DNA from: a virus
Reading direction: 5' to 3' (one strand)
UHGV virus genome: UHGV-1682877
Length of the DNA: 64,000 nt
This document shows positions 17,462 through 17,585 of this stretch, in pieces (positions within the stretch are counted from its first letter, which is position 1; the number at the start of each line of letters is the position of its first letter). The position numbers and the translations under genes were made by a program. The notes beneath the pieces are model-generated. The model was given only the letters and a program-made list of their open reading frames with translations, searched no databases and had not been told where the DNA came from.

Positions 17462-17585
17462 CAAATATATTTTTACAGGGTTTATAAAAATAGTATATTA
17501 TAGCAAATATATTTCTATAAAGTTTATTAAAATACTATATAGTAAATATATTTCTATAAGGTTTATTAATAGCATCTTGATATAG
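17462..17585 (+). repeat. three imperfect tandem repeats of about 40 nt (caaatatatttYtaYaRRgtttatWaa...tatag) directly upstream of tRNA-Gln
   Basis: Units at 17462-17503, 17504-17542, 17543-17585. Confidence 0.6.

Follow-up and report, generated by a model that had tools for sequence, protein, structure and literature searches.

A tandem repeat array ahead of a phage tRNA-Gln gene as the probable payload of a stem-closed, Y-RNA-like module

The window analysed here, a 64,000-nt stretch of the virus genome UHGV-1682877, carries two clusters of tRNA genes and a gene for a Ro60-fold protein. One of the tRNA genes, tRNA-Gln(UUG) (17584–17659; ARAGORN; 68.2 bits against the Rfam tRNA model), has its CCA encoded and is preceded by a short A/T-rich tandem array composed of unit 1 (42 nt, 17462–17503), unit 2 (39 nt, 17504–17542), and the core part of unit 3 (28 nt, 17543–17570). 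The array is enclosed by an inverted repeat with a CAGCAAT motif on its 5′ strand, and the whole, designated module M5 (17436–17579), lies like the repeats and the tRNA on the + strand. We consider it probable that the repeats are the payload of this stem-closed, Y-RNA-like module of ~145 nt, situated in the 5′ leader of tRNA-Gln. By frame and position, M5 is a predicted member of a family of Y-RNA-like elements associated with Ro60.

Tandem Repeats Finder describes the array at 17455–17569 with a period of 42, 2.8 copies, 82% matches, and a score of 144; when the window was shuffled 60 times with its dinucleotide content preserved, arrays of period ≥20 scored at most 83. A repeat search likewise places three copies in register, at spacings of 42 and 39 nt; the two later copies match copy 1 at 81 and 67% identity. 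The three imperfect tandem units described in the original prediction are therefore real, and the 26-nt unit core has no second site in the window at up to three mismatches (0 expected). The same prediction had the units ending exactly at tRNA-Gln, which is correct only for an ATATAG tail. Firm homology of unit 3 ends at ~17570, and the final 13 nt before the tRNA are a distinct feature, the 3′ arm of the inverted repeat (17571–17578) plus a 5-nt linker; ATATAG, their sole likeness to the tails of units 1 and 2, occurs 38 times on the same strand of the window. The triplication is certainly the product of local duplication, and to this extent the idea that it is a footprint of integration or recombination survives; against the rest of that idea, neither an integrase nor an att-like tRNA fragment is present, and exactly three copies are found in every one of seven genomes (the window included) that are 96–100% identical at the locus and represent five haplotypes. 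An unrelated second array, also of period 42, occupies positions 1–137 of the window (3.3 copies, 94% matches, score 253, unit AAGCACTTCTCCATTTTAAAATATTTTAAGAGATTTTATTAT).

The frame around the repeats is well defined. The 5′ arm of M5, AAGATGCT (17437–17444), is the reverse complement of the 3′ arm, AGCATCTT (17571–17578), so that the inverted repeat comprises 8 bp of perfect pairing, lengthened to 9 bp by a U-G pair. The CAGCAAT motif (17447–17453) sits on the 5′ strand directly above this basal stem, 2 nt past the 5′ arm. At the other end, the 3′ arm is followed by a G at 17579, as is typical for the family, and the linker GATAT (17579–17583) provides the 5 nt between the arm and the RNase P site of tRNA-Gln. 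The basal stem is present in both the minimum-free-energy fold and the consensus fold of the five haplotypes; the latter consists of the 9-bp basal stem, an 11-bp hairpin of unit 1, and a 24-bp, A-U-rich hairpin in which unit 2 is predicted to pair with unit 3. The folding z-score of M5 is −2.6. Both arms and the motif are invariant across the seven genomes, and the 2-nt bulge reads TT instead of TC in four of them.

The same frame recurs elsewhere in the window. When the flanks of all 17 tRNAs were compared, the sequence AGAyaCatACAGCAAT was found after several tRNAs and at 17438–17453, ahead of the array. The pattern AGA-N6-CAGCAA(T/A) has nine + strand copies in the window, all within its two tRNA clusters, and seven of the nine have a perfect 6–8-nt complement 55–161 nt downstream, followed by G, with the variable bases covarying. 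The window holds seven modules, M1 to M7; CAGCAAT is present in each, and in all seven the minimum-free-energy fold includes the basal stem. We define the family by an arm W-AGA-N3–5, 1–4 nt, CAGCAA(A/T), a payload, the complementary arm, and a G, on the strand of the tRNAs and Ro60, and every one of these elements is present in M5. The family frame is thus a basal stem of 6–9 bp with CAGCAA(U/A) above it on the 5′ strand, a free payload, and a G past the 3′ arm, and its members are interspersed among tRNA genes and point the same way as the gene for the Ro60-fold protein. One member, M1 (15318–15430, arms TAGACAG / CTGTCTA), has the appearance of a YrlA-like Y RNA, with a T-arm, a closed acceptor-like hairpin, and a D-arm; in a local scan it scores 26.6 bits (E = 0.0004) against Rfam YrlA, covering the full model, whose gathering score is 69.

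To follow the family beyond the window we used a Ro60-anchored set, made up of the window and 75 loci of ~21 kb around relatives of the Ro60-fold protein (76 sequences, 1.44 Mb). This set holds 172 modules on the gene strand versus 5 on the opposite strand, and a control with reversed arms gave 29 and 6, respectively. A complementary 6-nt partner accompanies 143 of 254 + strand motif hits; with random inner triplets, 18.4 would be expected. Of the 46 hits on the opposite strand, 7 have a partner, against an expectation of 4.7. The 172 modules have 57 distinct arm sequences and span 52–294 nt (median, 114), and the base past the 3′ arm is G in 147. A 16-mer common to M2 and M4 occurs in at least 120 IMG/VR contigs. 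Among the matches listed, GTGTCT(T/A)G lies within 300 nt of the 16-mer in 84 of 119 loci, and a Ro60 homolog lies within ~9 kb in 40 of the 84 loci chosen by the 16-mer with its partner, versus 5 of the 35 loci lacking the partner. Six cultured phages from six host genera, Bacillus PBC2, Enterococcus VRE9_1, Listeria CKA15, Escherichia coli wV8, Mycobacterium JoeDirt, and Campylobacter F348, have modules of this frame flanking their Ro-like gene, none of them annotated. YrlA-equivalent modules of relatives and cultured phages score 29–40 bits against RF02553, below threshold. A payload that is not tRNA-like is normal for the family, since 128 of 207 unique modules are without a T-arm, and a hairpin payload is typical of the short members. 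A megablast search of INPHARED returned no near-identical cultured phage.

The presumed partner of the modules is encoded at 26571–28094 (+ strand) and carries the Pfam domains DUF2828 and DUF7788. Sequence searches of the PDB with this protein, as a single sequence and as a 25-sequence profile, gave no Ro60 match. Its AlphaFold2 model (mean predicted local distance difference test score, 74.8) was compared with the PDB by Foldseek, and the top 11 matches are all Ro60, Rsr, or Ro60 of phage phiLo, full-length and with a probability of 1.00. They include phage phiLo Ro60 (9KOP and 9L5Y), Deinococcus Rsr (2NVO), and Xenopus and human Ro60; 9KOP is the best structural match (E = 1.7e-7), and only Ro60 structures appear at E ≤ 1e-4. 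Mycobacteriophage homologs of the protein are annotated as "Ro-like RNA binding protein." Y RNAs have a stem of their 5′ and 3′ ends and an adjacent motif, GNCGAA(N)G (PMC4201824) or CGAA (PMC12135203), with the Ro60 contact mainly on the 5′ strand. CAGCAAU is found at the position of this GNCGAA / CGAA contact motif and is presumed to be the Ro60 contact of the modules. M6 and M7 are within 1.6 kb of the Ro60-like gene. The genes past it (28149–36186) encode an RNA ligase-like protein (29596–30873), a metallophosphatase (31750–32535), and a PIN + PhoH protein (34915–36186); near-identical strains (locus L279, 12731–21524) also have an RNase T-like exonuclease and an AAA_33 kinase-like protein. 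Such neighbours, of RNA-repair and RNA-turnover type, fit an RNA-processing role for Ro60.

The position of M5, with its 3′ arm ending 5 nt before tRNA-Gln(UUG), is also a family trait. Modules that end ≤10 nt before a tRNA (n = 52) precede Gln(UUG) in 18 cases, Gln(CUG) in 6, and a CUA suppressor in 10 (34/52). This preference for Gln-type tRNAs suggests a conserved unit of phage Y RNA and tRNA-Gln or suppressor (relevant loci, L204–L277), and some of these phages probably recode TAG. In relatives whose Ro60 protein is 52–72% identical, the slot before tRNA-Gln is usually filled by a YrlA-like RNA of 110–127 nt and ~40% G+C, although shorter or different payloads are also found, and an A/T-rich linker of 5–10 nt follows as in the window. 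In the window and the six genomes 96–100% identical to it, the slot holds the A/T-rich triplication. Among the 172 modules, a tandem repeat serves as payload in M5 and its ortholog alone. A scan of IMG/VR with a degenerate unit pattern recovered the 96% relative and one single-copy hit in a giant-virus contig, which we take as chance; a tRNA-Gln 23-mer added no contig beyond one already matched by that scan, and a metagenome scan for the repeat found one 99.3% relative. With nhmmer, the payloads of M4 and M5 had no relatives, and that of M5 no tandem-unit relatives, in 3.4 Mb of related loci.

The junctions of the units have a symmetry of their own, which raises an alternative at the level of DNA. 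At 17499–17519 and 17538–17558 they form 21-nt near-palindromes, TATAG-Y-AAATATATTT-CTATA, of which 0.03 would be expected by chance. Two or three such 21-bp palindromes could act as operators or iterons that bind a dimeric protein, regulating tRNA-Gln or serving as an origin. Their arms are perfect, their spacing of 39–42 bp corresponds to about four helical turns, and they are nearly invariant in the seven genomes. However, the 64-kb window contains no further copy of the palindrome, no recognisable DNA-binding protein is encoded nearby, and the cumulative GC skew is monotonic, without an origin-like turn. The palindromes moreover sit inside a strand-specific RNA frame, and a palindrome is the expected look of an RNA hairpin gene, as short family members typically carry hairpin payloads. 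We regard a role as operators or iterons as very improbable.

Transcription of the array can be approached through the signals around it. The original prediction favoured tandem promoters for tRNA-Gln, and one σ70 promoter per unit would call for conserved hexamers at a spacing of 16–18 nt in each. Only unit 1 qualifies, with the sole σ70-like site of the array, TTTACA-16-TATATT (10/12, no TG); no acceptable pair of hexamers is present in unit 2 or unit 3, and the region has 28 promoter-like hits against 25 expected, which is chance density. In the comparison with related phages that had been suggested as a check, TTTACA is found only in the window and in one 99.3% relative, and the −35 element is TTTATA or TTATTA in the other five of the seven genomes. 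The strong promoter-like sites of the two tRNA clusters are of another type, TTGAnn-17-(TG)TATAAT (11/12), at 14014, 15180, 15443, 24648, 24733, and 24984, and in relatives the YrlA-like RNA that fills this slot has no promoter. Transcripts begun inside the array would lack the conserved 5′ arm and CAGCAAT, and a start within unit 3 would land in or at the edge of the tRNA. Although tRNA-Gln does have its own terminator behind it, we hold tandem promoters to be the least credible account of the repeats and have set that claim aside.

That terminator, an intrinsic one at 17703–17745 (+ strand), consists of a 17-bp hairpin and a U tract (RNAfold, −19.6 kcal/mol) and would close the transcription unit after tRNA-Gln. 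Between 15443 and tRNA-Gln there is no promoter-like site above 10/12, and the sole terminator-like hit on the + strand is the T-arm of the tRNA-like gene in M3. The simplest reading is that one polycistronic precursor, ending after tRNA-Gln, covers the tRNA genes and modules of this cluster. The array would thereby lie in the 5′ leader to be cut off by RNase P, and in this loose sense the suggestion that the repeats are processing sites stands; the units are not themselves repeated processing sites.

These observations can be assembled into a pathway for M5. The tRNA cluster would be transcribed as far as the terminator behind tRNA-Gln, as indicated by the promoter and terminator scans. One RNase P cut at 17583/17584 would, judging by its position, generate both the 5′ end of tRNA-Gln and the 3′ end of M5. 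The freed RNA is predicted to fold into the basal stem with its CAGCAAU bulge, the presumed contact for Ro60, a small hairpin from unit 1, and the 24-bp unit 2:unit 3 helix; that Ro60 would bind it is suggested by the linkage seen at the level of the family. The payload itself would have arisen by local tandem triplication of a palindromic-hairpin unit at a place usually taken in relatives by a tRNA-like (YrlA-type) domain.

Several observations weigh against this reading of M5 as a Y-RNA-like module. The literal Y RNA motif is absent, its equivalent place being occupied by CAGCAAU, and M5 has neither a T-loop signature nor any Rfam match, RF02553 included, even at E ≤ 10. It is on the same strand as the Ro60-like gene but 8.99 kb upstream, past the limit of ≤4 kb from a Ro60 ortholog that Chen et al. 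(2014) applied to Y RNAs (PMC4201824). The G+C content of the payload, 13%, is among the lowest of the 207 unique modules. Across the haplotypes the payload shows 0 compensatory pairs, and covariation is not obtainable from it because the haplotypes are too close. Unit 1 is hypervariable, with a TA insertion and an A-to-G change among strains. Finally, we considered the low divergence of M4 and M5 as a sign of constraint and rejected it, the next open reading frame being equally conserved. Published descriptions of Y RNAs specify paired 5′ and 3′ ends, a length of 80–130 nt with a large internal loop, and the motif variants GGUCCGA / GNCGAA(N)G / CGAA. M5 has the paired ends, but is ~144–147 nt long with an interior predicted to be mostly helical. 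It departs from the published Y RNAs in its motif, its length of ~145 nt, and its 9 kb distance from the Ro60 gene, and it is not a YrlA, as it is without the permuted tRNA-like domain and without an Rfam match, let alone one at the gathering threshold.

The serious rival follows from several of these points. M5 could be a decayed Y RNA whose frame has been retained only to serve tRNA-Gln as leader or processing helix, with the repeats as neutral slippage filler; Ro60 binding might then not be useful. This alternative differs from the preferred one in function only. The hypervariability of unit 1, which gathers substitutions and TA-slippage indels, and the 13% G+C of the payload are what would be expected of decaying filler. 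The payload is also the sole tandem repeat among the 172 modules and has no relatives beyond one species-level lineage, and a canonical YrlA-like RNA, M1, is available elsewhere in the genome. On the other hand, the array is old. Its units are only ~82% alike, against differences of ≤4% between the genomes, which places the triplication before the strains diverged; it has since neither contracted nor been lost from its three units. Units 2 and 3 have accumulated just one substitution, in unit 2, and one deletion altogether across the seven genomes and are, like the arms and the motif, almost invariant, and the many family members without a T-arm make a payload that is not tRNA-like unremarkable. 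On balance we judge decay unlikely, if deserving of serious attention. As for variation in other modules, relative to the 96% relative, M1, M2, and M7 differ in payload loops with their arms unchanged, and the motif differs by a single C-to-T change, in M7 of the relative only.

A bolder view takes the payload as something selected. The stem and CAGCAAU could form a general phage "Y-RNA cassette" that offers exchangeable payloads to the phage Ro60, with the triplicated helix as an effector and not filler, but we think this distinctly unlikely as matters stand. The payloads on offer would, on this rather doubtful proposal, include tRNA-like domains, look-alikes of anticodon stem-loops, and the triplicated 24-bp A-U-rich helix. 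As an effector the helix might conceivably, at similarly long odds, work as a multivalent or double-stranded-RNA-like tether or as a decoy for a host ribonuclease or defence nuclease.

The modules share much with known Y RNAs. Like YrlA and YrlB (Chen et al. 2014, PMC4201824; RF02553), they have a basal stem of paired ends and a short conserved motif beside it on the 5′ strand, they occur near a Ro60 ortholog on the same strand, and several can be present per genome. The permuted tRNA-like domain of YrlA is shared by M1 and many relatives, which match RF02553 over its full length. The motif differs, being GNCGAA(N)G in YrlA and CAGCAA(U/A) in the modules, and the modules score 27–40 bits against a gathering score of 69. 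M5 departs further from YrlA in having a triplicated A-U-rich hairpin in place of a tRNA-like domain and in lying 9 kb from Ro60, and the modules as a group are unlike YrlA in being interleaved with tRNAs. Yrl1 and Yrl2 of Thermus phage phiLo (PMC12135203) are, like the modules, phage-encoded stem-bulge-stem RNAs upstream of a phage Ro60, whereas their bulge is CGAA and no tRNA-array context or repeat payload has been described for them. Ro60 binding by Yrl1 and Yrl2 has been shown by experiment (PMC12135203), whereas for the modules it is a prediction. A/T-rich units repeated upstream of a stable RNA gene also recall the tandem promoters of stable-RNA operons such as rrn P1-P2; unlike those, units 2 and 3 are without conserved hexamer pairs, the −35 of unit 1 is unconserved, and the array is inside a stem-closed module.

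Y RNAs have been suspected beside the Ro60-like genes of Listeria phage CKA15 (PMC12282133) and E. coli phage Bas63 (bioRxiv 10.1101/2024.10.10.617714), in which, as in the window, the same protein family is encoded beside tRNA arrays. In those papers the Y RNAs are speculative and no element is defined, whereas the stem + CAGCAA family is defined here. CAGCAA modules are present directly upstream of CKA15_055, behind a consensus σA promoter, and among the tRNAs of Felixounavirus wV8. The CKA15 paper reports three highly transcribed regions and gives coordinates for one of them, 26,236–26,727, annotated as three small coding sequences and by far the most transcribed (PMC12282133). We find that this region (locus L298, 5467–6018; OR088597.1, ~26195–26746) scores 90.1 bits against the Rfam ROOL RNA model, with a gathering score of 99.1. 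The three CAGCAA modules of CKA15 are further downstream (L298, 6661–6923), behind a TTGACA-17-TATCAT promoter, and not in the ROOL-like region.

Phage Ro60 proteins are common: the protein database has at least 8000 homologs, and INPHARED has 704 records with one. According to a recent report, one of these proteins counters a bacterial defence system, but the RNA partners of phage Ro60s are mostly unannotated. A checkable signature for such partners is provided by a basal stem, CAGCAA(U/A), and a G behind the 3′ arm, in elements interspersed among tRNAs. This signature is valid from mycobacteriophages to Felixounaviruses and gut phages, where the Rfam YrlA model detects the elements weakly or not at all, and it is the more useful by-product of the analysis. 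The slot before tRNA-Gln shows that the frame tolerates a full swap of the tRNA-like core for a helix built from repeats, and this swap is a natural experiment for telling the parts of a phage Y RNA that serve Ro60 binding from the part that is the effector. For annotators the array carries a warning, in that repeats in a tRNA leader are not necessarily promoters.

The remaining modules, all on the + strand, show how varied the payloads are. M2 (15884–15948, arms AAGACAC / GTGTCTT) has a short payload. M3 (16848–16961, arms TAGACTC / GAGTCTA) encloses a tRNA-like gene with an 8-nt anticodon loop (16876–16948), reported by ARAGORN as tRNA-??? with a 4-base anticodon, "tgaa," and scoring 53 bits against the Rfam tRNA model; it could be an unpermuted tRNA-like domain of a Y RNA or a tRNA resembling a frameshift suppressor. 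M4 (17241–17401, arms TAGACACA / TGTGTCTA, with the CAGCAAT motif) has a payload of 136 nt and begins 3 nt past tRNA-Pro(UGG) (17163–17238, + strand; ARAGORN, Rfam tRNA), the upstream neighbour of M4 and M5. Between M4 and M5 lies a pyrimidine-rich linker of 35 nt (17402–17436, TTTTTTCTTATTTTATCCTTTCTTTCTTCTTTATA), unlike the linkers behind other modules, and its U run right behind the closing stem of M4 could be a weak terminator or a processing site. M6 (25022–25085, arms AAGACT / AGTCTT) begins at the predicted start of the 24984 promoter-like site, TTGAAA-17-TGnTATAAT, and ends 14 nt before tRNA-Leu. M7 (25685–25739, arms AAGATACT / AGTATCTT) is placed between tRNA-Gly and tRNA-Thr.

Some short payloads resemble anticodon stem-loops with a loop of 7 nt, CUUUUAA (Lys-UUU-like), CUGUUAA, or, in M6 (25054–25070), CUGGUAA. 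Other loci with such payloads are L203 (~9295–9310, the M7 ortholog), L008, L009, L093, and L246, and the counts are small; these payloads could be mimics of tRNA anticodon arms or decoys. Three other identities for the modules were considered and rejected. As self-cleaving ribozymes they would need an architecture like that of HDV-like (hepatitis delta virus-like) or hammerhead RNAs, which they do not have, and no module has an Rfam ribozyme match. As promoters, with CAGCAAT followed by TATAAT, they show inconsistent distances to −10-like boxes. As terminal inverted repeats of mobile elements they pair over only 6–9 nt, and the motif is not mirrored on the 3′ side.

Further observations concern the interval between M2 and M3. 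Relative to the 96% relative L003, an insertion of ~875 nt occupies 15970–16845. At 15920–16010, right after M2, there is a weak tRNA-like match (21 bits) with a good T-arm and an ACCA end, in which a 34-nt insertion replaces the D-arm; it is possibly a degenerate or unusual tRNA. A candidate for a minimal HDV-like self-cleaving ribozyme (16088–16141) abuts the 3′ end of tRNA-Met (16015–16087, CCA not encoded), with P1 GAGACAU / AUGUCUU, a G-U pair at the cleavage site, L3 UCCACGC, J4/2 GCGAAC, and P2 UCAACC / GGUUGA. It scores 19.7 bits against Rfam HDV-F-prausnitzii, below threshold, and its setting beside a tRNA is the context of the "theta ribozyme" (PMC10879173). The ~875-nt insertion carries the open reading frame of a GIY-YIG homing endonuclease (16195–16842), which adjoins this pair of tRNA-Met and ribozyme candidate, and other strains have different homing endonucleases (PD-(D/E)XK / NUMOD1 and HNH) near the second tRNA cluster.

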